Source of the DNA: a virus
Lineage: Duplodnaviria > Caudoviricetes
DNA: 64,000 nt
Virus record (IMG/VR): IMGVR_UViG_3300035502_000313
Coordinates: 1-64,000 of that record
Reading direction: 5' to 3' (one strand)
Position numbers and translations under genes: made by a program. A model generated the notes under the pieces. The model saw only the letters and a list, made by a program, of their open reading frames with translations. It had not been told where the DNA came from and did no database searches. Positions 10,633 through 44,539 of the stretch are shown here, piece by piece (the stretch's first letter is position 1; each line of letters opens with the position of its first letter).

Positions 10633-13600
10633 TTATATCATATTAGTTATAGCTTTAGATGCATATTTTAATGTATTTGCTGTAATTTTTGTAGAGTTAT
10701 CAGAGAATGGAGTACTATTATAATAGTCTGAGAAGTTGAATCCTTTTTCTGCTTTCATTACATAATCTAGATTAGATTTAAATACATTTAGACATGTAGC
10801 TCTAGTATCTATTAACTCTTTATATTGATCATTATTTAAACGTTTCTTAAGTTTCTTCTCAATACAATCATTAATATACCATAGCTTAGCTAGTTCGTAT
10901 TTCATTCCTTCTACATTACTAGAATTTCTATATACTTCTAATAACTGTACAGAATCAGCAATCTCATCTCCAAATGCTAAAGAACCTATACGAGATTTAT
11001 AAATAATTAAGTTACCTTCCTTATCAAACTCTATAGGAAATCTCTTTACTTCATTTAGAATAGCTATTGGTTCATGATATAATTCAGTACTCTCATTAGT
11101 TGATAGTATTCTATTAATTTTTTTCTCGTCTGCTAGATATACAGGTATCATATCTATAAGACTTCTTTTATATGCAGATAATTTTTTACCTGGCTTTACA
11201 TCTCTTTTTTGTTTTCTTGTATAGGAAGTTAACATTGAAGTTCCTTTTATTATGCAAGGTTCATTTTGTATATAGTCTACTGGTAAGTTGAGTACTTGTG
11301 TTCCTTCAAAGATACCAATATGACCTCTGTATTGTGAAGTATTTAGTTTATTTTTAAACCATTGTAAGAAATCTATTACAACTTCAGTTATATATTCGCT
11401 ATCAAAATCCTTCATACCATGTAAATTATCAGGAATGGTATTCTTTATAAAGTCAATTCTTTCAGCAAAATATTCAATTAATATATCTGGTATTTTACCA
11501 CCATTGAATTTATCTCCGTCAGGATAATGCCATTTACTATCAGGATTATGTATATTCAAGCAAACAATTGTTATATTATCTCCTGATACACAAATAGAAT
11601 TGTTGTATTTCTTACTATACTCATCTATAAGTGTAGTCTTTCCAGCACCAGAATGTCCTGTTATGAATAGTATATTATGATCACTATTAGGAGCTAGTAA
11701 TTCTATATTCAATTTTATATCATCTTTATTAACTAGAACAGATTCTTTCATATAACCTTTGAAATCTTTTAGAAGATTCCAATCATCTATATAAAATTTT
11801 CCTTTTATCCATTTAACGTTTCTAGTTGCTACTGTTTTCATTATGTCAAAGAAGTTCTTTTGATTATCAATACCATATTTTATAGTACGCATTTCTCTTC
11901 TAAATTCTGTTTTAAATACACCGTTATTCTTTATTATAACAGGACATTTTGATATCTTTGTGGTGTTTTGTTTGTTCGCACAATGAGCTATTTGTACACC
12001 TTCTATTACAAATCTTTTATTCTTATGAGAATTAGCATATTTAAATATATATTCGAATAGACCGTTGAATTCTTTTACACACATATCCCCATCTGATACA
12101 ATATTCTCAAATGTTATTTCTTCTAAATTATTGAGAGATGTAAATATACCAGACAATCCACCTTTAGAACTTATATACGAATCAATTACTTCACATTTAG
12201 TAGTATCCCAATTATTTACTTTAGCTCTTTGAAGTCGGTCTAATTCTACATATTCAGCATCATATGATTCACATATTTCTTTAGCAATAGTACTTTTTCC
12301 AGAACCAGATAATCCAGTAATCCACATAAGATTAGATTCGCCAGATTCCCAAAGCTCTATATTATAAAAAGAATCATTATATTCATGTGACTTTAAATCA
12401 GATACAGCTTCTTCAATACTAATGAATCCTTTCTTGAGAATTGACTTCATTTTATTTTCAACTCTTTTACCATTATACTTTGTAGCAATATCATTGAATA
12501 CTTCTATAATCTTATTAGGAACAGATTTTGCTGATGTATATAGTTGTCCTGGGTCTGGAATTTCTATATCTCCTACTAAATTAATACCGCCACTTTTAAG
12601 TACTGTATCTACAAATGTAGAACATACTTGATTGTATTCATTCTTGCTTACTTTATGGTCTATATGTAATATCTTATTGAAGAAGATTCTTAAATCAAAA
12701 GTAGTTTTGTTGTTCTTAAAATCTTCTACTTTTTCTTTTAACTTGTCTACTATATTATTAGGAGCAAAGAAAGCCATTACAGATATTATATTGTCTTTGA
12801 AAGATGATAGATTTTCTCTTACAAACCCAAAGTTTTCTCCTCTCATGTTATAACTATATACTTCTCCTAAAGTTGGATCAAATGATATACTAGCATGAGA
12901 ATAAGTACTTCCTGTAAAGAATTTTATACCTTGAGAAACTAATGGAGTTTTTCCTTGTGTAAATATTAATAACACAGGTTTATGTGTTGCACTAGTAGCT
13001 TGTTCTTCTACAATATCTTCATCTGATATAATATCATCAAGATTGATAAATATATCTCTTGGGATAGTTTCATCTAATATCTTTGATACTCGTTCAGATG
13101 CTTTTAATCTATTCTTTCTGTTGAATGGGATTTCTGGGTTCCATCCTAAATCAAGAATGGATTGTTTTCTAGCGAGTATTTTTTCTTCATCTCCAGACGA
13201 TTTAATATCATCAAAGTCAGAATATAACATGTCCAAAGTATCTATCCAATCCTTTCTATAGTCTTCAAATATATGGTCTAAACACATATCTTTATAAGAA
13301 TCAAACCATGTTGCTACTTTGACATTTGTTATAAGACCATCATTATCAGCATCTTTACAATAGAAATTATGATTACCATGTACACCTATATCAATTAATT
13401 CTGTAGGAGTGAAGTATGGTGTATCGTTAAATCTTCTATGTTGATTTGCTTTTATAGATTCGGATTCATTAATAGCTTGCATGTTATTGTATACTTGATT
13501 TACAAATTCTAACTTTGTAGTTATTAGATTCTCGCCATCTGAAGAATGTATAGTGTCTTGTTTTTCTACATTTATACATTTTAATGCTTTTGCCTTTAAA

Positions 13601-14289
13601 TCATTATATCTTTCTATATTAGACATGCCATAGATTTCTCTACATTTATCATCGGATTTCTTTCTATGATCATGAGATTGAGAATTAAAATCATGAAATG
13701 CTTTTTCAAGATTCTTTAAGTAATCTTCATGATTTAATCCTTTAATAGAACCTACTATATTAATATTGGTATCTATTTCATATTGGTCTGCAGCTTTATC
13801 TTTACTTACATCTTCAAATGTTCCTGCACCCCTTACTCTATAATAATTACCATCTGTAAAATCAGTATCTGAGTTTACCTCTACAGGTATACTTGAGTCT
13901 TCCTTTACTGGTGTAGTGATGTCATTGTCATCGTCTGGAATTTCATACTCATCGAAATCTCCAGAAGTAATAGAATCAGATATTTCGTCATCTTCAATAG
14001 ATTCATCATCGAATTCATATGATGTCATATCTTCTTCATTATCATCACCATATTTAGCATCTATATTACTCATCAGTTCAATTTTTAGAGATTCATAATG
14101 CTCTTGATTAGTCATGTTCCAAATTTCAATTGAACGATCATCACTTAGTCTTTGTTGTCTTGGAGTTAATTGAGATACAAACAATTCATATTGTCTTTCA
14201 AGTTCTTCCAAATCATCGGTGTCTTTTATGATAATATAATTAGTATCTCTCATAAACTTATTAGCAAGGACATTCTTATAAGTTTCCAT
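10633..14289 (-). CDS. Large virion protein carrying a permuted NlpC/P60 (YiiX-like) domain and two P-loop kinase-like domains
   Basis: YSHASISFD...CSTFV; ITGLSGSGKST...VIEGVQ; ITGHSGAGKTT...IFEGTQ; late promoter 14318-14330. Confidence 0.7.
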   Translation of the reverse strand: METYKNVLANKFMRDTNYIIIKDTDDLEELERQYELFVSQLTPRQQRLSDDRSIEIWNMTNQEHYESLKIELMSNIDAKYGDDNEEDMTSYEFDDESIEDDEISDSITSGDFDEYEIPDDDNDITTPVKEDSSIPVEVNSDTDFTDGNYYRVRGAGTFEDVSKDKAADQYEIDTNINIVGSIKGLNHEDYLKNLEKAFHDFNSQSHDHRKKSDDKCREIYGMSNIERYNDLKAKALKCINVEKQDTIHSSDGENLITTKLEFVNQVYNNMQAINESESIKANQHRRFNDTPYFTPTELIDIGVHGNHNFYCKDADNDGLITNVKVATWFDSYKDMCLDHIFEDYRKDWIDTLDMLYSDFDDIKSSGDEEKILARKQSILDLGWNPEIPFNRKNRLKASERVSKILDETIPRDIFINLDDIISDEDIVEEQATSATHKPVLLIFTQGKTPLVSQGIKFFTGSTYSHASISFDPTLGEVYSYNMRGENFGFVRENLSSFKDNIISVMAFFAPNNIVDKLKEKVEDFKNNKTTFDLRIFFNKILHIDHKVSKNEYNQVCSTFVDTVLKSGGINLVGDIEIPDPGQLYTSAKSVPNKIIEVFNDIATKYNGKRVENKMKSILKKGFISIEEAVSDLKSHEYNDSFYNIELWESGESNLMWITGLSGSGKSTIAKEICESYDAEYVELDRLQRAKVNNWDTTKCEVIDSYISSKGGLSGIFTSLNNLEEITFENIVSDGDMCVKEFNGLFEYIFKYANSHKNKRFVIEGVQIAHCANKQNTTKISKCPVIIKNNGVFKTEFRREMRTIKYGIDNQKNFFDIMKTVATRNVKWIKGKFYIDDWNLLKDFKGYMKESVLVNKDDIKLNIELLAPNSDHNILFITGHSGAGKTTLIDEYSKKYNNSICVSGDNITIVCLNIHNPDSKWHYPDGDKFNGGKIPDILIEYFAERIDFIKNTIPDNLHGMKDFDSEYITEVVIDFLQWFKNKLNTSQYRGHIGIFEGTQVLNLPVDYIQNEPCIIKGTSMLTSYTRKQKRDVKPGKKLSAYKRSLIDMIPVYLADEKKINRILSTNESTELYHEPIAILNEVKRFPIEFDKEGNLIIYKSRIGSLAFGDEIADSVQLLEVYRNSSNVEGMKYELAKLWYINDCIEKKLKKRLNNDQYKELIDTRATCLNVFKSNLDYVMKAEKGFNFSDYYNSTPFSDNSTKITANTLKYASKAITNMI

Positions 14290-20391: not shown

Positions 20392-23300
20392 TTACTTAAA
20401 ATCATGTCTTATTGTGTATTCTTGTTTAATTCCCATTATATCTTTTATTTGTCTGTCTAGTTCTACTAATCCTTTACCGGCAAGTGTATACTGTAATGGA
20501 GCACAACACATACGTTTATCAAAAGATACCATAGAAGCAATAGCATCAATAGGTTCATCTGGTCTATATGAAGAAGTAGGTTCTTGTCCTGCAGGAACAA
20601 CCTCTTTAGCTACACCCTTTTGAGCACCTAAGAAAATTAACTTATCACCAACAGAGAAGTCATCTTTATAAGATACATAGAATTCAATTAATACACCATC
20701 TTCTATATTCTTTAGTTTACCGTCTTGTGGAAGTTTCTGAGCAGTATATTGTTTAGCAAGATTGTCATTATATTTAGAAATCTGTTTTGCTTTAGCATTC
20801 TTTTTTCTTTCATACTCGGTAACAATCTTCTTTAGAGATGGTGACATATCTTCTAAATCACATGTACGATATATAGATATCTCTTCTACTATGCCTGTAT
20901 TATTTGATTTAATAGGAATACGTCCTAATGAAGTAACTGTATCTTCATCATCAACAAGATTCTTTAGAAGAACGTTTACATCATTATCTTCAAATGTATT
21001 CTGTATAATAAGTAATGGATCACCTTCTTGTACAGAATCTCCAACACTTACCATATTAAATACGTTAGTATTCTTAGATAATGTAACAGGTACTTCCATA
21101 ATTACATTAGATGACAATGCATCTGAAATATAACTAGAAACAATACAAGAATCTTCAAATCCCTTATCAGATGTAATGATAGCTATCTTAGCTAATGTAC
21201 CCTGATTATAAGTGGCACTATCGTCATATCCACAATTTACTGTATATGACATAGGATCATAAGCAATTAACTGACCTTTCTTAACTTTAGTGCCAAGATT
21301 CTTTGCTGGAGATAACTTAATAGATGTATAGAAACCACCATCAGAGTTCTTATATACTTTATTATTAAGGTCTACAAAATCAACACTACCATCATCATAC
21401 TGTACTACTATATGATCATCATCTCTTTCAATTATTCTTCCATCTTTCTTAGCATTAAATGAGAAATAGTCTGGAGTAAATGTAGATAAAGCATCATCCA
21501 TACCATTTGTAATAAGCAATGGGTCACCACCAGCAACTCTCATATCATGCTTTGTTCTCTGTACATACGACATTGCAAGACGGAATGGGTCATCATGAGT
21601 TGTACACATTGGAGTCAAGTTCTCTGCTGTAGTCATTGTATTAACATCATTCATATTCTTTTTTGTATTAGAATTATCAGAGATATATCCACGTTTACCA
21701 CTGATATTAGAGTTCGTTGTAACAACACGGCTAACGCCAACAGTACCAGCAAAACCTGTAGACATTCCAATTATGTTTGTCATAGATTCATCATAAGTAC
21801 GTTTTTCAAGAGAATAAGAACGATCACTATTAAGACCAGACAATCCTTTAAATGATACAGTATTATTTGCTTCAGCATACCATAAGTCATTAATTGTGGA
21901 TGCATCTGATGCTGTACTATCTGCCATAATAGCATCTAGAATAGCAGATTGTTTTATTGTCATTGTAGCCTTACCAGTTTTCTTAAGCTTTGTTCTATAA
22001 TCAGCATAAGATCTAGAAAGTTCTTTGTATGCATAACCAGCAATGATTTCATTAGTTCTAAATCTATTACCAGAGATATCTGTATGTTTATTAAACTTTG
22101 TATCAGATAATAGATTGGATGCATATATTAAACCATCACAGAATTCATCTGGTAAATCATATACTTTACATACACGTTTAGTTATTGGATCAAACAACAA
22201 GTCATAGAAGTTGTCTAAACCATCAGCTTTGATTCTACCACCAAAATGGTCTAACATTTCAGTCCACATTGTTTTTGTATTAATCTCTTTAATAGAGTAA
22301 TCTTCTGTATTACATTCTTTAAGACCATTCATAAACATAGATGAATTGTAATCAATCTTATACGTAATAAATCCATCCTTAAACTTAATTATATCATATT
22401 GTGTTAAATCAAGTTTTGTAGGACGTTTATCAGTAATCTCATAAGATATTCCTGCTTTATTGATAGTCTTAATAAGTCCTTCACAATAAGAGCATATTAC
22501 AATTACAGGAATCTTTGTATTAAGAATAGAAGCTTGAGAATAAGCATACTTTACAGAAGGTTTAGCTTCATCGAATAAAGTAGCAAACTCTGTATCTTCA
22601 CATAACTTCTCAGCAATGATAGCTGTACATAATTTAGAACCATCACTATATATAATATTACTTCCATCATATCCTATAGGAAGTCCTTTAGACATGTCTA
22701 TTTTATCAGGATATTGTTCTCTTATCTTATCCTGATCAAAATAGAATGTAGTATTCTTATATTTAATATATGAGAAATTCTTTCCTAAATCAGCATAGTC
22801 TATAGGAATTTCATACTTAAGAGCAGTAATTGCATTATTACCTGTCATATAAGTAATAGATTTTCCAGTATATTTAGATATAGCTTTTACTATCTTACCA
22901 GCAATTACATTAGACTTTCCTAAAGCACTACCAAATGTATAGAAGAATATCTTATTATAGTTTGTAGTAATCTGAGCTGTATCAAACTCTGTCTTAATGA
23001 TAGGAAGATTCATAAGCTGTGCATTGATAGTTTTATCATTACCTTTGATTCTCATAAAACGATTATTCTTTAACTTAGGAATATCAAACTTAAGTTGGAA
23101 TCTAGTACCACTAATATCTTCACACTGTACAGTCCATGTTTCTTTTAAATCTTCTGATGTTGTAGTGTCTTCTACATCAACACTTCTGATACCTACTGGA
23201 ACTGTTCTTGTAGAGAAGAAGTCAAGAATAGCCATAATGTCTTCATCTACATCATATTCTTCATTAAAGTTTATATACTGTAGATTATCCCATTGATCAT

Positions 23301-25602
23301 TATTAATACTATTGATATTAGCAGATGATACTGGTAACGGTTCATTCTTATCATCACTAGAATTTTCAAGCATCTCTTTTACAGATTTACCCTTGACTTG
23401 TTTCTTCTTAAGATCATCACTAAGAGAATTAATTCTTGCTTTACGAGTTGCAGATGCTTTAATCTCTGTAGATTCTTCATCAGATATATCTTTAATAAGA
23501 TTAGCTACATAATCATCATTATCAAGCTTATCTAATGCTTCATCTGTAGAAGTAGATGTTGCTGCAGCATCTTTAATTTTTTCAACAAGTTCTTCCTTCT
23601 TCTTATCTGTGATCTCTTTAGATACTTCTTTTTCAGTCTTAGGATTGTTATTTTTATCATTAACTGTTACTTTCTTATTAGTAGTAGTTTTAGGCTTGGG
23701 TTTCTCTGCAGTCTTACTAGCTTTAGGAGTATCTTCCTCATCATCAGGATTATTCTTAGCTAGTAAACCAGCCTTTCCTAAAGCACTATATAATTCAACT
23801 TTCTGAGACTTTTCAATCTTATCTACAATATCTGTAACAATTGCATCAGGAGTATCTTGAATCATTTCATCATCTGTAGGTACAATTCTATTAAAGATAT
23901 TATTAATATTAGATATGAATTTCTGAAGCTGATTCTTCTTAAAGGTAGAGAAATTAATCTTGAAATATGAATTAGAACCAAAGAAAAATACATCACAATC
24001 TCCGAATATTTTCTTTAGTTGTTCAAAATTATTTCTCTTAACTAGACGTATTATGAGGCTTACAGGATTCAATGATTTTGTATAATCAAATACATTTACA
24101 TTTTCTTGGTAGTAATCTAATACTGGAATAAAAATTGTTTTAACGTCATATGCTTTGTCTAGTTCTTTATTATTAAGAAAACGACGTAATGTCTCTGTAT
24201 ATATTCTAAGACCTTGTTCACCCATCTTATTATTATTTTCGATAAACAATCTGTTATAATAAGATATATCAAAGAATAGGTTTAATCCTTTATACATAGA
24301 TACATTTACTTTTGTATATTTAATAGTGGGACACTGAGACTTAACAACTTTATATACATCGAACAAATCTTTCTGAGTTTTGATTCTTTCGTTATACATA
24401 TATTTTCTAAGTCTATTGTCTACAGCATCTTCAGTAAATATCTCATCACCAAAGAAGAACGCTCTATCATCAAATCTAAATCCTTCAGAAGTAGAAGTTT
24501 CTGGAACTATTGCTTTAGAATCTTCTTCTTTCTTTGCTTCCATATTAACATATACTACAGGATAAGGATATTTCTCAGTTTTCTTACCAATAAAATGTAA
24601 AGCAAGTGCTCTATCAAAGAAATTTCCATCTTGAATTAAAGAAGTCTTTATTCTCTTGATCAATACTTTATCTCTATTAATAGAATATACTGGAACAACT
24701 CTTACTTTAAGTTGATTATTTAACATCCAGTCTCTATATGAGTAAATTAGAAATTTTGTGATTTCTTCTTTCTCATCCTCGTCATCAAAATAATCATCAT
24801 CAAGATATACTCCGAATTCATTACCACTAACAAAGTCTTTATAACCAACACCAAATCCAGCAAGATTATCGTTAGCATCATAACACTTTACTAAGTAATT
24901 AGCATTCTTAAACATATCGGATACATTCTTATAATCTCTCATATCCTTAACAAGTTTTTGACATTCTTTAGATTCCTTCTTTATATCATCTTTTCTAAAG
25001 TAAGCAAATCTATAATCTGTCATTAACTCTATAGGAATTCTACCAGAAGTATTTACAGAAGCTTCTTTGAAAGATCTATAATACTTAGAGAATTTATTAT
25101 TCTCACCAACTTCAATATCAGTAATTTCAAACTCTTTTAGTTTCTTCATGATATTTTTAGCAAGGGTCTTTTCATCTTCTTTAGGGCAATGATTGAACAT
25201 TTTGATTGCTTGTCTTACATGTTCTTCATCATTAATAGGATATGATCTTGTTCTAGGAATACCAAAATCACTATCAGATAATGATTTTCTATCCTTAGAA
25301 GATAACTTAGCTTCATTGGTAAAAGCTTTAACAGTTTCATCTTCATACTGTACAAACTCTTGTATTTCACCAGTATCTGCTTTAATAATAGCATTAATAG
25401 ATTTATCAATATAATATGATTTAAACCAGTTACGATTTATAATCATATTACTATTAATCATATCTATAGAAGATGATATGTCTGGAGTTAATAGATATAT
25501 AAGACTCCCATGCTTATTATCATCTTGATTTAAAGGTACAAATAATTTATTAGATCCTTTATACATCCTTAAATTTTTCATATCTTTAATGTGTATAGCC
25601 AT
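20392..25602 (-). CDS. Virion RNA polymerase beta subunit (large part) with N-terminal accessory domains
   Basis: DDPFRLAMSYVQ, GFEDSCIVS, VGDKLIFLGAQKGV, PIDAIASMVSFDKRM match RNAP beta motifs; late promoter 25628-25640. Confidence 0.85.
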   Translation of the reverse strand: MAIHIKDMKNLRMYKGSNKLFVPLNQDDNKHGSLIYLLTPDISSSIDMINSNMIINRNWFKSYYIDKSINAIIKADTGEIQEFVQYEDETVKAFTNEAKLSSKDRKSLSDSDFGIPRTRSYPINDEEHVRQAIKMFNHCPKEDEKTLAKNIMKKLKEFEITDIEVGENNKFSKYYRSFKEASVNTSGRIPIELMTDYRFAYFRKDDIKKESKECQKLVKDMRDYKNVSDMFKNANYLVKCYDANDNLAGFGVGYKDFVSGNEFGVYLDDDYFDDEDEKEEITKFLIYSYRDWMLNNQLKVRVVPVYSINRDKVLIKRIKTSLIQDGNFFDRALALHFIGKKTEKYPYPVVYVNMEAKKEEDSKAIVPETSTSEGFRFDDRAFFFGDEIFTEDAVDNRLRKYMYNERIKTQKDLFDVYKVVKSQCPTIKYTKVNVSMYKGLNLFFDISYYNRLFIENNNKMGEQGLRIYTETLRRFLNNKELDKAYDVKTIFIPVLDYYQENVNVFDYTKSLNPVSLIIRLVKRNNFEQLKKIFGDCDVFFFGSNSYFKINFSTFKKNQLQKFISNINNIFNRIVPTDDEMIQDTPDAIVTDIVDKIEKSQKVELYSALGKAGLLAKNNPDDEEDTPKASKTAEKPKPKTTTNKKVTVNDKNNNPKTEKEVSKEITDKKKEELVEKIKDAAATSTSTDEALDKLDNDDYVANLIKDISDEESTEIKASATRKARINSLSDDLKKKQVKGKSVKEMLENSSDDKNEPLPVSSANINSINNDQWDNLQYINFNEEYDVDEDIMAILDFFSTRTVPVGIRSVDVEDTTTSEDLKETWTVQCEDISGTRFQLKFDIPKLKNNRFMRIKGNDKTINAQLMNLPIIKTEFDTAQITTNYNKIFFYTFGSALGKSNVIAGKIVKAISKYTGKSITYMTGNNAITALKYEIPIDYADLGKNFSYIKYKNTTFYFDQDKIREQYPDKIDMSKGLPIGYDGSNIIYSDGSKLCTAIIAEKLCEDTEFATLFDEAKPSVKYAYSQASILNTKIPVIVICSYCEGLIKTINKAGISYEITDKRPTKLDLTQYDIIKFKDGFITYKIDYNSSMFMNGLKECNTEDYSIKEINTKTMWTEMLDHFGGRIKADGLDNFYDLLFDPITKRVCKVYDLPDEFCDGLIYASNLLSDTKFNKHTDISGNRFRTNEIIAGYAYKELSRSYADYRTKLKKTGKATMTIKQSAILDAIMADSTASDASTINDLWYAEANNTVSFKGLSGLNSDRSYSLEKRTYDESMTNIIGMSTGFAGTVGVSRVVTTNSNISGKRGYISDNSNTKKNMNDVNTMTTAENLTPMCTTHDDPFRLAMSYVQRTKHDMRVAGGDPLLITNGMDDALSTFTPDYFSFNAKKDGRIIERDDDHIVVQYDDGSVDFVDLNNKVYKNSDGGFYTSIKLSPAKNLGTKVKKGQLIAYDPMSYTVNCGYDDSATYNQGTLAKIAIITSDKGFEDSCIVSSYISDALSSNVIMEVPVTLSKNTNVFNMVSVGDSVQEGDPLLIIQNTFEDNDVNVLLKNLVDDEDTVTSLGRIPIKSNNTGIVEEISIYRTCDLEDMSPSLKKIVTEYERKKNAKAKQISKYNDNLAKQYTAQKLPQDGKLKNIEDGVLIEFYVSYKDDFSVGDKLIFLGAQKGVAKEVVPAGQEPTSSYRPDEPIDAIASMVSFDKRMCCAPLQYTLAGKGLVELDRQIKDIMGIKQEYTIRHDFK

Positions 25603-25784
25603 ATTAATATACTCCTTTCATGTGATTTTATAAGAATGTTTTTGACATCCATTTAAAATGTAATTATACAATAACATGTTTATATATTATATTAGTGATA
25701 GTCAGAGAGGCTATCCTAGAGTAATAACGGTTATTACTCTAGAACACAATTCAGACAGAAGACGTACTTGAGGAGGTACACACA

Positions 25785-37121: not shown

Positions 37122-39359
37122 TCAATCTCCTTTTATAAATAATTTATCATGGTTCTGACCAGCTTCAGTAAACAAAGCTTTATAATTATTATTATCATTT
37201 GCATATACAAATAACTTAGCTTCGTTTCTTCCACCAGGTACGAACAACATATCCTTATTCCAATCAAAGAAATGGAACAGCATTGAATCATCTGCATTAT
37301 GTCCGATTTCTTTATATTTAATTGGAATCTTCTTGAATTCGAATTTATGTCCCATACACTTGATAATTGTATTGAGCATCTCTGCACTACGAGACTTACA
37401 ATCTTCATCAAGTTCGACATTAAATTCATAACTTTCGAGCATCTGTCCAGCACATCTTCTTCCTTGAGGTGATGTACTGTATACCATAAGATTCTTTATC
37501 TGGATTTCTGCTCCCATAAGGAAGAACAGAGAATCTTCCATTTCACCAAATCTTATAGGTGTATTAGAATGAACTCTAATAAACATCTTAGCTGCTTTTG
37601 ATTTAGAGTTAAGACATCTAACGTTAGTAGCAGACATAGCAGTAGCAGAATGTTTTTCTTCAGCATTCTGTTTCATTCTATAGATATACTGTCTTGCTAC
37701 AATAGAAGGTTTCTTACTCTGAACAAATCTAATCTGTCCTCTAGAACCCTTAATAGGAACATCAATGAATACCGGTTTAATCCATGGGAATTCATTATAC
37801 AGTTCTATCAAAGTATCAAGAGTAATAGATTCTGAGATAGGTTCAAGTGGTAGATATAAACCATCACTGTGTTCTGTAATCCAATCTGTAATAGTAAAGA
37901 TTACTTCATCATCATTAATGCAACTTTCAATTTCATCAATGAAGAATTTAGCCCAATCATCAGAAAGTATACCGAGAAACTTATGAATTAACTCAGTACA
38001 CATTTCTACATCTGTTGGAACTGAAAGGATAAACTTAGTGATATTGTTTGATATAAAGTTTAATGACAGTTCGAACAACTGACCTGGATTCAGACGGTTT
38101 ACACAAGTAGCCTGATTCCAAATAATATCAATTGTATCGTCTGTACCAGATACTCTAGGCATAAGATTATCTGGAATAACTTTTGATATAACTCCCTTAC
38201 CACCATATCTGGAAGTTACTTTATCACCAACTTCAAGTGGTGCTTTACGATATACAGTAAGCTCTATAACAATATTAGAGAATATATTATCTTTGAAGTA
38301 TTGTTTACCACTGATAACTTTCTCACAAGTTGTATAAAGCTGACTAAGTTCGTAACTCTTTTTGTACATAGAGTTATCGATAAAATCTCTCAAGAGTTCT
38401 ACAACTTCAGAACAGAATCTCTTATAGTCTCTATCATAATATGCTAGTTGACCTTCATAAATTCCATTAGCAGAAGTAGCGATATCTTTATTACAATAAA
38501 CATTGATATCGATTATACGTCCTTTAGTCTTGAAAGTTGTATCATTAATCATAGGGACTTTCAATCTTTCTGCGGACTGAGTAAAGAAGATTTCATCGTT
38601 TCTTTCCGTTCTGGTACCGCATATTATTCCATTCTTGATTTCTTCACCAATATCTGGAATAATCTTATATACAGTATCATCACCATAAAGATTAAGCGGA
38701 ATATCATTGTCATTTATGAGAATGGTAATCTTCTTAATCTCTGGTCTTGATAATGCTATTGCTGCTGACTCAGCAATTTCAATTGCGTCTTCTGTTGTAT
38801 TGGAATCTGAAATGTATGCTGCATTAAGATTCCTACCAGTCATATAGTTGTCAGCTATATCAAAAGACATTGATTTCTTAACAGTCTGGTTTTCAGTTAT
38901 AACGCTTCCTACTGAAAGACTATCAAGATAAGTGTTATTATACAGAAATCCATAAGACTCTGTATTATGACAATAAGACACTCTCTCAATTACATCGAGA
39001 TTGTTATTGTCGTCTGTAACAAAAAGAAAGTAATGGTGTCCTGGTAAGTTAGAGAATTTTTCAATCTTACCTACTACTCTCCATTGTCTGTCACTTTTGA
39101 CAAACGCAGAACTACGTTGTCCAAAAAGATTTTCATATCCTGTGCTTATATAAGGAACCTCAGGATTTTCAAGGCATACCTTCTGTTGGTATTGACTTGA
39201 GAACATGTTTTTTCTTGATGCGGAATTAGTACACTCGAACGGCATGTTAAGACCAATACCGAGTATCTTTTCCATGTTGCCATCATTATACTTTTCTGAC
39301 GCTGCTATGATATGTTTATCAATATCAGGATCGTCATATAATTTTGTATAAACCTGCAT
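37122..39359 (-). CDS. Non-virion RNA polymerase beta subunit, C-terminal part
   Basis: SRKNMFSSQYQQ, TTEDAIEI, GDKVTSRYGGKGVIS, NRLNPGQ, RFGEMED. Confidence 0.9.
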   Translation of the reverse strand: MQVYTKLYDDPDIDKHIIAASEKYNDGNMEKILGIGLNMPFECTNSASRKNMFSSQYQQKVCLENPEVPYISTGYENLFGQRSSAFVKSDRQWRVVGKIEKFSNLPGHHYFLFVTDDNNNLDVIERVSYCHNTESYGFLYNNTYLDSLSVGSVITENQTVKKSMSFDIADNYMTGRNLNAAYISDSNTTEDAIEIAESAAIALSRPEIKKITILINDNDIPLNLYGDDTVYKIIPDIGEEIKNGIICGTRTERNDEIFFTQSAERLKVPMINDTTFKTKGRIIDINVYCNKDIATSANGIYEGQLAYYDRDYKRFCSEVVELLRDFIDNSMYKKSYELSQLYTTCEKVISGKQYFKDNIFSNIVIELTVYRKAPLEVGDKVTSRYGGKGVISKVIPDNLMPRVSGTDDTIDIIWNQATCVNRLNPGQLFELSLNFISNNITKFILSVPTDVEMCTELIHKFLGILSDDWAKFFIDEIESCINDDEVIFTITDWITEHSDGLYLPLEPISESITLDTLIELYNEFPWIKPVFIDVPIKGSRGQIRFVQSKKPSIVARQYIYRMKQNAEEKHSATAMSATNVRCLNSKSKAAKMFIRVHSNTPIRFGEMEDSLFFLMGAEIQIKNLMVYSTSPQGRRCAGQMLESYEFNVELDEDCKSRSAEMLNTIIKCMGHKFEFKKIPIKYKEIGHNADDSMLFHFFDWNKDMLFVPGGRNEAKLFVYANDNNNYKALFTEAGQNHDKLFIKGD

Positions 39360-43705: not shown

Positions 43706-44539
43706 ATGAATAATCAAGTTATTGGAAGTATTATTCTTGAAGCTGCATCTAATCCAATTGATTTGAATGTTATTGCTGAAAATAATGGTAAAGTTGAAGC
43801 TACAGGTATTATTCAGGATGCTGATGTAGAAAACAGAAATGGACGTATCTATGAAGAGAAAGATTTAAAGCCTGAGGTTTATTCAGATAGAATTCAGAAA
43901 GAACTTATTCCTACTGGTAATATGAGAGGACATGATGGTCACCCATCTTCTTCTGAACTTTCTGTACAGTCTGTTATTGATCCTAAGTTATGCTCTGTTC
44001 AATTCACTAAGATTTGGATGGAAGGTAAAGATATCCATGCTAACTTTAAGGGTACTAACAATGACCTAGGAAGAGCTTTTAATGCTGATCTTCTTGAGGG
44101 TTGCAAACCATCTTTCTCTTTAAGAGCTTTAGGTTCTGTAGATAGAGAAAGAAATGGTAAGTGCTATGTAAGAAATATCAGAATCATTACATGGGATAGA
44201 GTTATTTTCCCTTCTCATAAGAGAGCATATACAACTGGTTTTGTATCACCTAAGAACGAGGGTGCTATTACTGAATCAGCACAAATGTATAATACTCAAG
44301 CTATTAATGAGAACGGTATTCTTATTCCTATTGTGAATAAACAGGTAGTAGACTATATAAAGACTGAGTCTGCTAATGTAAAGAGTATTGTAAATACATT
44401 CGATACATTATATGAATCTGCTATTATTTGTAATGGTGGTAAGAATGTTCAACTTCAGACAACTGATGGTGATAGAATCCTTATAAATCTTGAACAGTAT
44501 ATTCAGGATGAGATTATGAATTATTGTTATAATAACTAA
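43706..44539 (+). CDS. Prohead core protease (T4 gp21/phiKZ gp175 type)
   Basis: GIIQDADVENRNGRIY, GHDGHP, FSLRALG, ITWDRVIFPSH. Confidence 0.9.
   Translation: MNNQVIGSIILEAASNPIDLNVIAENNGKVEATGIIQDADVENRNGRIYEEKDLKPEVYSDRIQKELIPTGNMRGHDGHPSSSELSVQSVIDPKLCSVQFTKIWMEGKDIHANFKGTNNDLGRAFNADLLEGCKPSFSLRALGSVDRERNGKCYVRNIRIITWDRVIFPSHKRAYTTGFVSPKNEGAITESAQMYNTQAINENGILIPIVNKQVVDYIKTESANVKSIVNTFDTLYESAIICNGGKNVQLQTTDGDRILINLEQYIQDEIMNYCYNN

Follow-up and report, generated by a model that had tools for sequence, protein, structure and literature searches.

Introduction

How giant phages deliver the proteins that act before phage gene expression is poorly understood. The examples described so far are separate internal proteins, as in T4, and giant single-subunit polymerases with fused domains, of the N4 type. 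The T4 internal proteins and Alt carry a capsid-targeting sequence and are processed by gp21 at (L/I)-x-E. Here we analyze the gene for the virion RNA polymerase (RNAP) beta subunit in a stretch of 64,000 nucleotides of DNA from an uncultured giant gut phage (Duplodnaviria; Caudoviricetes), hereafter the window, which comprises positions 1 to 64,000 of IMG/VR record IMGVR_UViG_3300035502_000313; the source genome is a complete virus record of 212 kb with terminal repeats. A previous reading of the letters, made without database searches (the sequence-only reading), had suggested that this subunit carries Glu-flanked passenger domains, one DUF6582-like and one GNAT-like, and serves as a vehicle for co-injected effectors. 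We propose that a loop in the N-terminal domain of the subunit is a protease-delimited cargo bay, a reading to which we assign a probability of roughly 0.55.

The closest described system is phage 201phi2-1, whose virion RNAP beta loses an N-terminal propeptide to the prohead protease at TFE-275 (PMC5694885). In both cases the protein is a jumbo-phage virion RNAP beta subunit, and the T-F-E of 201phi2-1 resembles F-T-E391 of the protein studied here. The protease motif found here, however, looks T4-like, with a hydrophobic residue at P3, rather than (S/A/G)-x-E, and neither folded passengers nor variable cargo have been described in that phage, in contrast to the loop insertion with swappable modules reported below. 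With T4 this locus shares an S77 protease, a hydrophobic-x-Glu motif and a cargo predicted to be cut and to be delivered with the DNA. T4 cargo, however, is made of separate genes with a 10-residue tag, whereas here it forms part of a loop in an essential enzyme subunit.

Polyvalent proteins, as defined by Iyer et al. (2017, PMC5512222), include the N4-type virion RNAP with its fused peptidase, ART and lysozyme domains; this RNAP is a single-subunit enzyme, and neither jumbo phages nor multisubunit RNAPs are mentioned in that work. Like them, the system described here has a long polypeptide, an early-acting polymerase, a shifting set of effectors (GNAT, kinases, peptidases), predicted delivery with the DNA and predicted processing. 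Unlike them, the carrier is the beta subunit of a multisubunit RNAP, the cargo lies in an internal loop, and the predicted processing would be performed in trans by the head protease. A comparative paper on jumbo phages went no further than noting, for the beta DPBB-containing proteins, a "unique N-terminal region", and a 2026 review mentions no cargo on virion RNAP.

Results

Identity and layout of the beta subunit

The protein matches PHROG 3148, "RNA polymerase beta subunit" (E 3.3e-139, residues 555-1722), and tblastn found the RNAP beta genes of AR9/PBS1 and of Staphylococcus, Listeria, Yersinia and Fusobacterium jumbo phages, with matches only from residue 762 on. In AR9 the best match carries the annotation "virion RNAP subunit", and Thermus RNAP beta is matched with E 3.7e-6. 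These similarities identify the protein, by sequence, as the beta subunit of a jumbo-phage virion multisubunit RNAP and as the ortholog of the AR9 protein, and this orthology suggests that the subunit would be packaged in the head of the present phage. The AR9 ortholog (L001, NC_031039.1 149146-155764) is annotated as six joined pieces interrupted by an HNH endonuclease gene, unlike the gene of this phage, which is uninterrupted.

A search with residues 1-760 gave 107 homologs and a scan of IMG/VR gave 80 further loci. Hidden Markov models (HMMs) of four pieces of the protein, namely the leader, the DUF6582 module, the GNAT-like module and the conserved block that we call modC, were mapped onto all homologs. 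The resulting layout is given in Table 1, where the stretch between leader and modC is the bay. The modC HMM matches all homologs scanned and also AR9 and LPJP1. Among 45 close relatives the core is on average 81% identical to this protein, the leader 74%, and the DUF6582 module and modC 67% each; the GNAT-fold module (50%) and the linker at residues 341-391 (29%) are lower. The three Glu junctions of the sequence-only reading were correctly placed: AFTNE↓A falls at E97 (25312-25314), SFKE↓AS at E180 (25063-25065) and IFTE↓DA at E391 (24430-24432), where the arrow marks the candidate cut.

Table 1. Features of the beta subunit gene and of other genes discussed in the text. Positions are those of the window unless marked "genome"; ↓ marks a candidate cut; AF2, AlphaFold2.
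Feature	Position	Strand	Evidence and remarks
Virion RNAP beta subunit gene (P0001)	20392..25602	-	Open reading frame (ORF), 1736 residues
Conserved leader, residues 1-75	25378..25602	-	First half of predicted N-terminal alpha/beta domain; HMM-recognised in most homologs
Bay entry linker, residues 76-97	25312..25377	-	Alignments; ends in candidate cut site 1 (F-T-N-E97↓A)
DUF6582 module, residues 98-180	25063..25311	-	Pfam PF20223, PHROG 16160, Atlas; ends in candidate cut site 2 (F-K-E180↓A)
GNAT-fold module, residues 181-340	24583..25062	-	AF2 model, Foldseek, VIA-align
Disordered linker and junction hairpin, residues 341-391	24430..24582	-	Ends in candidate cut site 3 (I-F-T-E391↓D)
Conserved block modC, residues 392-600	23803..24429	-	Second half of predicted N-terminal alpha/beta domain
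Lys/Glu/Asp-rich linker, residues 601-760	23323..23802	-	Joins N-terminal domain to RNAP beta core
RNAP beta core, residues 761-1736, and stop codon	20392..23322	-	tblastn from residue 762
Shine-Dalgarno GAAAGGAG	25612-25619	-	Read upstream of beta gene
AACA-N6-TA late-promoter-like site	25629-25640	-	Read upstream of beta gene; region 25612..25640
Head maturation protease (Peptidase_S77, T4 gp21 type)	43706..44539	+	Presumed processing enzyme; PF03420 41.6 bits, above cut-off
1218-residue protein	10633-14289	-	
Non-virion RNAP beta C-terminal gene	37122-39359		Separate from virion subunit
877-residue ORF (L011)	genome 165014-167647	+	Outside window, just upstream of capsid gene region
Major capsid protein	genome 168809-170839		

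Variability of the bay among relatives

The distance between leader and modC ranges from -1 to 1543 residues in 159 non-identical homologs, with a median of 328. DUF6582 is found in 99 of the 159, directly after the leader in all but two of these (97 of 99), and the GNAT-fold module is restricted to the 56 closest relatives. More distant relatives have NUDIX (up to 101.7 bits), true GNAT (56 bits), AAA_18 kinase and DUF362 (142.5 bits) domains at the same position, and over the whole set the number of other modules in the bays of relatives goes from none or one to about ten. The DUF6582 and GNAT-fold modules have also been lost one without the other: one relative (P0040) lacks DUF6582 only and another (P0051) lacks the GNAT-fold module only. 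No insert at all is present in AR9, Staphylococcus phage SA1, Listeria phage LPJP1 and Fusobacterium phage JD-Fnp1, and both segments are absent from about 20 uncultured homologs too.

Since the two segments are absent from some relatives, lost one at a time in others, replaced elsewhere and lower in identity, we regard them as passengers outside the polymerase fold; the comparison of homologs supports the view that they are dispensable and mobile. The sequence-only reading had taken them for passengers as well, and they are indeed neither invariant nor integral to the RNAP fold, as the insert-free homologs, the two single losses and the unrelated replacements indicate. By its domain content the bay also has the features that characterize polyvalent proteins, unrelated effector-type domains in an architecture that shifts among relatives. 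The copy of this phage has two modules only, neither with proven activity.

The largest bay (1543 residues; P0067, residues 180-1600) contains DUF6582, a P-loop kinase, GNAT, two NUDIX modules and at least two unassigned modules, and it holds a Cys/His module that looks papain-like by eye. The NUDIX module of one relative gives a Nudt16-like, decapping-type match.

Position of the bay in the N-terminal domain

In AR9, SA1, LPJP1 and the insert-less homolog P0108, leader and modC directly adjoin each other, and in AR9 and LPJP1 leader-like sequence runs into modC. We built an AlphaFold2 model of a minimal form of the protein, the first 420 residues of locus L113 (predicted template modeling score 0.77). 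Its predicted local distance difference test (pLDDT) values are 86-97 for the leader, 30-50 for the 65-residue bay and above 90 for modC. The domain made of leader and modC had no Foldseek match at E of 0.001 or below. A wide VIA search gave a best Z of 5.0, with SRP-type GTPases and zeta toxin, which amounts to a weak P-loop-NTPase-like resemblance, and many of its weak matches extend over both halves (residues 6-330 in one case). Contiguity of the two parts in cultured phages, the model and these spanning matches together indicate that leader and modC would form one alpha/beta domain of about 300 residues, with the bay as a disordered loop within it. Consequently, if the bay were cut out, the leader would stay bound to the domain as a separate chain.

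The DUF6582 module

Taken alone, residues 98-180 score 31.9 bits against Pfam PF20223 (DUF6582), above its curated cut-off of 27.3 bits, but they reach 27.2 bits, slightly below it, when the whole protein is scored. The same residues match PHROG 16160 (E 5.8e-9), and their nearest clusters in the ESM Atlas are DUF6582 proteins, viral and Bacteroidota proteins of about 80 residues. On these sequence grounds the segment belongs to the Pfam family, in agreement with the DUF6582-like assignment made from the letters alone.

A profile search with DUF6582 retrieved 2354 representatives of clusters, and for 1467 the E value was below 1e-10. Numerous representatives have several domains, either DUF6582 copies in tandem or GNAT and HAD domains alongside DUF6582; among the proteins looked at (P0110, P0160, P0222, P0226, P0249) one of 945 residues has four tandem copies. 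Stand-alone DUF6582 genes, of about 100-230 residues, start M-(L/I/V)-x-E directly at the domain start, and the motif that precedes DUF6582 is present in 104 of 110 copies against a background of 0.17. Deposited phage genomes gave a single tblastn match to DUF6582 and, in a word-based search, one fragment. We found no paper mentioning DUF6582, and a search by sequence for a relative with a solved structure gave none, nor was there a model in the Atlas.

The GNAT-fold module

The second segment had been called GNAT-like from its sequence pattern. Assignment by sequence had to be rejected: the Pfam GNAT families do not match residues 181-390 even at E values up to 10, and hhalign of these residues against the true GNAT modules of relatives gives a probability of 0.3%. 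The structure, by contrast, does support it. An AlphaFold2 model of residues 181-390, built on 46 homologs, has a mean pLDDT of 78.8; the first 140 residues (181-320) are confident, mostly above 90, and residues 342-367 are below 50 and are followed by a short hairpin. The top Foldseek matches of the module model are GNAT acetyltransferases only (probability 0.9-1.0, E about 1e-3), and VIA-align gives Z up to 9.3 (5us1_A, root-mean-square deviation 3.4 A, 125 residues aligned), which is only slightly above the usual background of 7-8. With structural but no sequence matches, the resemblance is real at the fold level only.

A GNAT domain is recognised by a mixed sheet with helices in the order beta1-alpha1-alpha2-beta2-4-alpha3-beta5 and onwards, by a match to a sequence profile, and by the acetyl-CoA pyrophosphate loop, Q/R-x-x-G-x-G/A, between beta4 and alpha3. 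Residues 181-340 show the first of these features and neither of the other two. The loop after the strand at residues 80-87 of the module, located by eye on the AlphaFold2 secondary structure, is acidic, D-D-D-Y-F-D-D-E-D-E-K, with no Gly. The earlier assignment therefore holds for the fold, and fails for the sequence match and the acetyl-CoA loop. From the model, the module is probably not an active acetyltransferase and would not bind acetyl-CoA, and the absence of that loop leaves the label of "effector enzyme" unproven.

The head protease and the candidate cut sites

The window contains a gene for a head maturation protease of the T4 gp21 type (Table 1), which also matches PHROG 207 and 3014, both "head maturation protease". 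Its orthologs keep I-L-E↓A at residue 12 and I-T-E↓S just past the catalytic domain, and SPN3US gp245 cuts itself in this same region (PMC5694885). Orthologs of the major capsid protein keep I-L-x-E↓(A/S/G) at residue 39 and V-L-E↓H at residue 100, just before the conserved core. Because capsid protein and protease orthologs keep such sites, the head-protease motif of this lineage is probably hydrophobic-x-Glu, as in T4. The protease begins with a conserved leader of 12 residues, ending in I-L-E↓A, that resembles a T4 capsid-targeting sequence, and the C-terminal tail of its orthologs keeps the I-T-E↓S site and an L-Y-E↓S site.

Out of 101 Glu residues in the beta subunit, 12 lie in a hydrophobic-x-E that is kept in at least 85% of 47 sequences. 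E97, E180 and E391 are among these 12 and lie in the otherwise fast-evolving N-terminal part. At site 1 the Glu is invariant and hydrophobic-x-E is present in 96% of the 47 sequences; at site 2 the motif is kept in 98%; and site 3, an F-x-E-like junction before modC, is invariant in the 47 close sequences and found as hydrophobic-x-E in most of about 100 homologs. The folded modules themselves have no motif site conserved in at least 85% of homologs. Minimal bays of 55-70 residues that contain no module still have 2-4 L-x-E sites. An encoded protease and conserved hydrophobic-x-Glu at exposed junctions, like the sites of the capsid protein and the protease, are two features expected of an S77 substrate, and both are present, with a caveat at site 1 arising from how DUF6582 domains start.

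Counts of [LIVM]-x-E were compared with composition-preserving shuffles. The motif is in excess in all bays taken together (1442 observed, 1097.6 ± 27.4 in shuffles) and in short bays (86 against 42.6 ± 5.4), agrees with the shuffles in the polymerase bodies (3034 against 3053 ± 48) and is depleted in the linker between modC and core (414 against 538.8 ± 18.9), the corresponding z-scores not being probabilities because the compared sequences are related. Protease sites would be expected to accumulate where cutting frees cargo and to be avoided where it would break the enzyme, and this is the pattern seen. Taking motif, conservation and protease together, it appears likelier that a T4-type head protease cuts at E97, E180 and E391 than that it leaves them intact.

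A leader serving as a shared capsid-targeting tag was also looked for; the HMMs of leader, DUF6582, GNAT-like module and modC match no other ORF of the 212-kb genome.

Related modules in other proteins

The sequence-only reading had linked the subunit to the 1218-residue protein encoded in the same window as following one cargo logic. Two modules of that protein, a kinase (residues 639-801) and the module at residues 412-643, are homologous to modules in the bays of relatives of the beta subunit (P0089, P0060, P0067, P0052, P0080 and L124), and since those bays hold homologous modules the two proteins appear to draw on one module pool. Furthermore, relatives of three other proteins of this phage, the 1218-residue protein, an endonuclease-like protein and the 877-residue ORF, carry inserts that contain DUF6582. 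Inserts in relatives of the 877-residue ORF (P0170, P0172, P0179, P0187, P0239) reach about 900 residues, DUF6582 included, and separate an N-terminal part (residues ~50-283) from a C-terminal part (residues ~316-872), so that a second cargo bay may exist in this other protein of the head region. The ORF was also considered as a portal, for which there was no support (no Portal_T4, PHROG or tblastn match).

The gene for the N-terminal subunit of the non-virion RNAP beta, sought for comparison with the leader, was not found by the profiles; a candidate at 175199-177424 was rejected as beta'-like.

Discussion

In the reading that we favor, the surface loop between leader and modC would have become a hyperplastic cargo bay, which in this phage holds the DUF6582 and GNAT-fold modules. 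The beta subunit would be built into the prohead, and the head protease would cut after E97, E180 and E391, where hydrophobic-x-Glu is followed by Ala, Ser or Asp. The two modules would then be released as small internal proteins of the head, and the leader would stay attached, non-covalently, to the rest of its domain. If the subunit is packaged and ejected with the DNA, the contents of the bay would be delivered to the host at the start of infection; this transfer into the recipient is suggested by analogy with the role of the virion RNAP in AR9 and phiKZ-type phages. The notion of the polymerase as a vehicle for co-injected effectors is strengthened by the mobile modules, the protease and a motif enrichment confined to bays, and is left short on one side, as an effector enzyme in the GNAT-like module is unproven. 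A simple N-terminal propeptide, which the sequence-only reading had assumed, does not agree with the results: the contiguity of leader and modC in AR9-type phages and the L113 model place the bay as a loop inside a domain.

Several observations weigh against this proposal. The virion RNAP beta of SPN3US, gp241, is unprocessed, and phiKZ gp178 probably likewise (PMC5694885). A cultured phage with a bay was sought and none was found. DUF6582 has no known function, and the GNAT-like module, to judge from its model, lacks the acetyl-CoA loop. At site 1 the P3 residue of this phage is Thr (F-T-N-E), in a position where nearly all relatives have I, L, V or F. Furthermore, stand-alone DUF6582 genes begin with such a motif too, so that the one upstream of DUF6582 may belong to the domain, in which case site 1 would be a feature of DUF6582 and not a place of cleavage. 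As a tripeptide, hydrophobic-x-E is common, and the kinship of the sequences makes the z-scores of the shuffles overstate their independence. The one-domain reading of leader and modC is weak, coming from a model made without contact maps and from matches with Z of at most 5. Finally, the AACA-N6-TA match upstream of the gene is not significant, and it is weak evidence because the pattern is not enriched in the window (33 observed against 28 ± 6).

The main rival, which we think rather unlikely and yet serious, is that the modules are permanent accessory domains: the bay would be an uncut lineage-specific insertion, and its modules would act tethered to the injected polymerase, with the ends of nascent RNA, or host proteins close to the incoming DNA, as possible targets. 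Lineage-specific insertions are common in multisubunit RNAPs, and those of bacterial RNAP beta and beta' were reportedly described by Lane and Darst in 2010. Like these insertions, the modules studied here are extra domains in surface loops of a large subunit and differ by lineage. Bacterial insertions, however, mostly repeat a single structural module and remain attached, whereas here enzyme-type or DUF modules are found, which vary even among close relatives and are flanked by protease-like sites. A tethered arrangement agrees with the unprocessed SPN3US subunit and with a leader that lies in a folded domain and hence is no disposable propeptide; the NUDIX modules of relatives, one of them Nudt16-like, could act on RNA 5' ends, and the motif of site 1 may be intrinsic to DUF6582. 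It does not easily account for a motif that is enriched in bays yet depleted in the adjoining linker, which is hard to explain without a protease, nor for the L-x-E sites of module-free minimal bays, and these modules are also encoded by stand-alone genes and found in other carriers.

It is improbable, in our estimation, that the bay is an assembly-only propeptide that serves folding or prohead targeting, is chopped up and leaves the head, so that nothing reaches the host. Propeptides of T4 and SPN3US are cut at several sites and mostly exit the head, minimal bays are rich in motif sites, and the GNAT-like module looks catalytically dead, all of which such a role would predict. The bays of relatives, however, hold intact enzyme domains with high scores, for which there is little reason in a throw-away peptide, and the folded modules are free of conserved motif sites. 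Least probable by far is that the two segments belong to the polymerase structure itself, with the Glu motifs a coincidence: the segments are conserved in about 50 close relatives, yet insert-free phages and uncultured homologs, single losses and unrelated replacements all speak against it.

The protease-delimited cargo bay may be one case of something broader. We suggest tentatively, at somewhat less than even odds, that a large clade of uncultured AR9-like jumbo phages has a general cargo-cassette system, in which mobile modules, usually led by DUF6582, sit in exposed loops of several head-packaged carriers (RNAP beta, the 1218-residue protein and the 877-residue ORF), are delimited by head-protease sites and are released in the capsid for injection. 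The shared cargo logic of the sequence-only reading stands in so far as one module pool serves several carriers; its plain propeptide has to be given up, and its GNAT-like effector enzyme is unproven. If such a system exists, DUF6582 would be its common adaptor or first cargo, and an essential polymerase subunit would carry enzymes for host takeover or anti-defence, amounting to as many as about 1,500 residues.

If the reading proposed here is true, an essential multisubunit polymerase subunit with a plug-in loop would join separate internal proteins and fused single-subunit polymerases as a means of delivery. It would provide a catalogue of candidate injected effectors in gut phages (NUDIX, GNAT, kinases, DUF362, DUF6582), a predicted cleavage code for the head protease and, for the widespread DUF6582 family, a first setting in which to consider function. 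At a single site the polymerase accommodates very large insertions, a property that is potentially useful for loading proteins into capsids.

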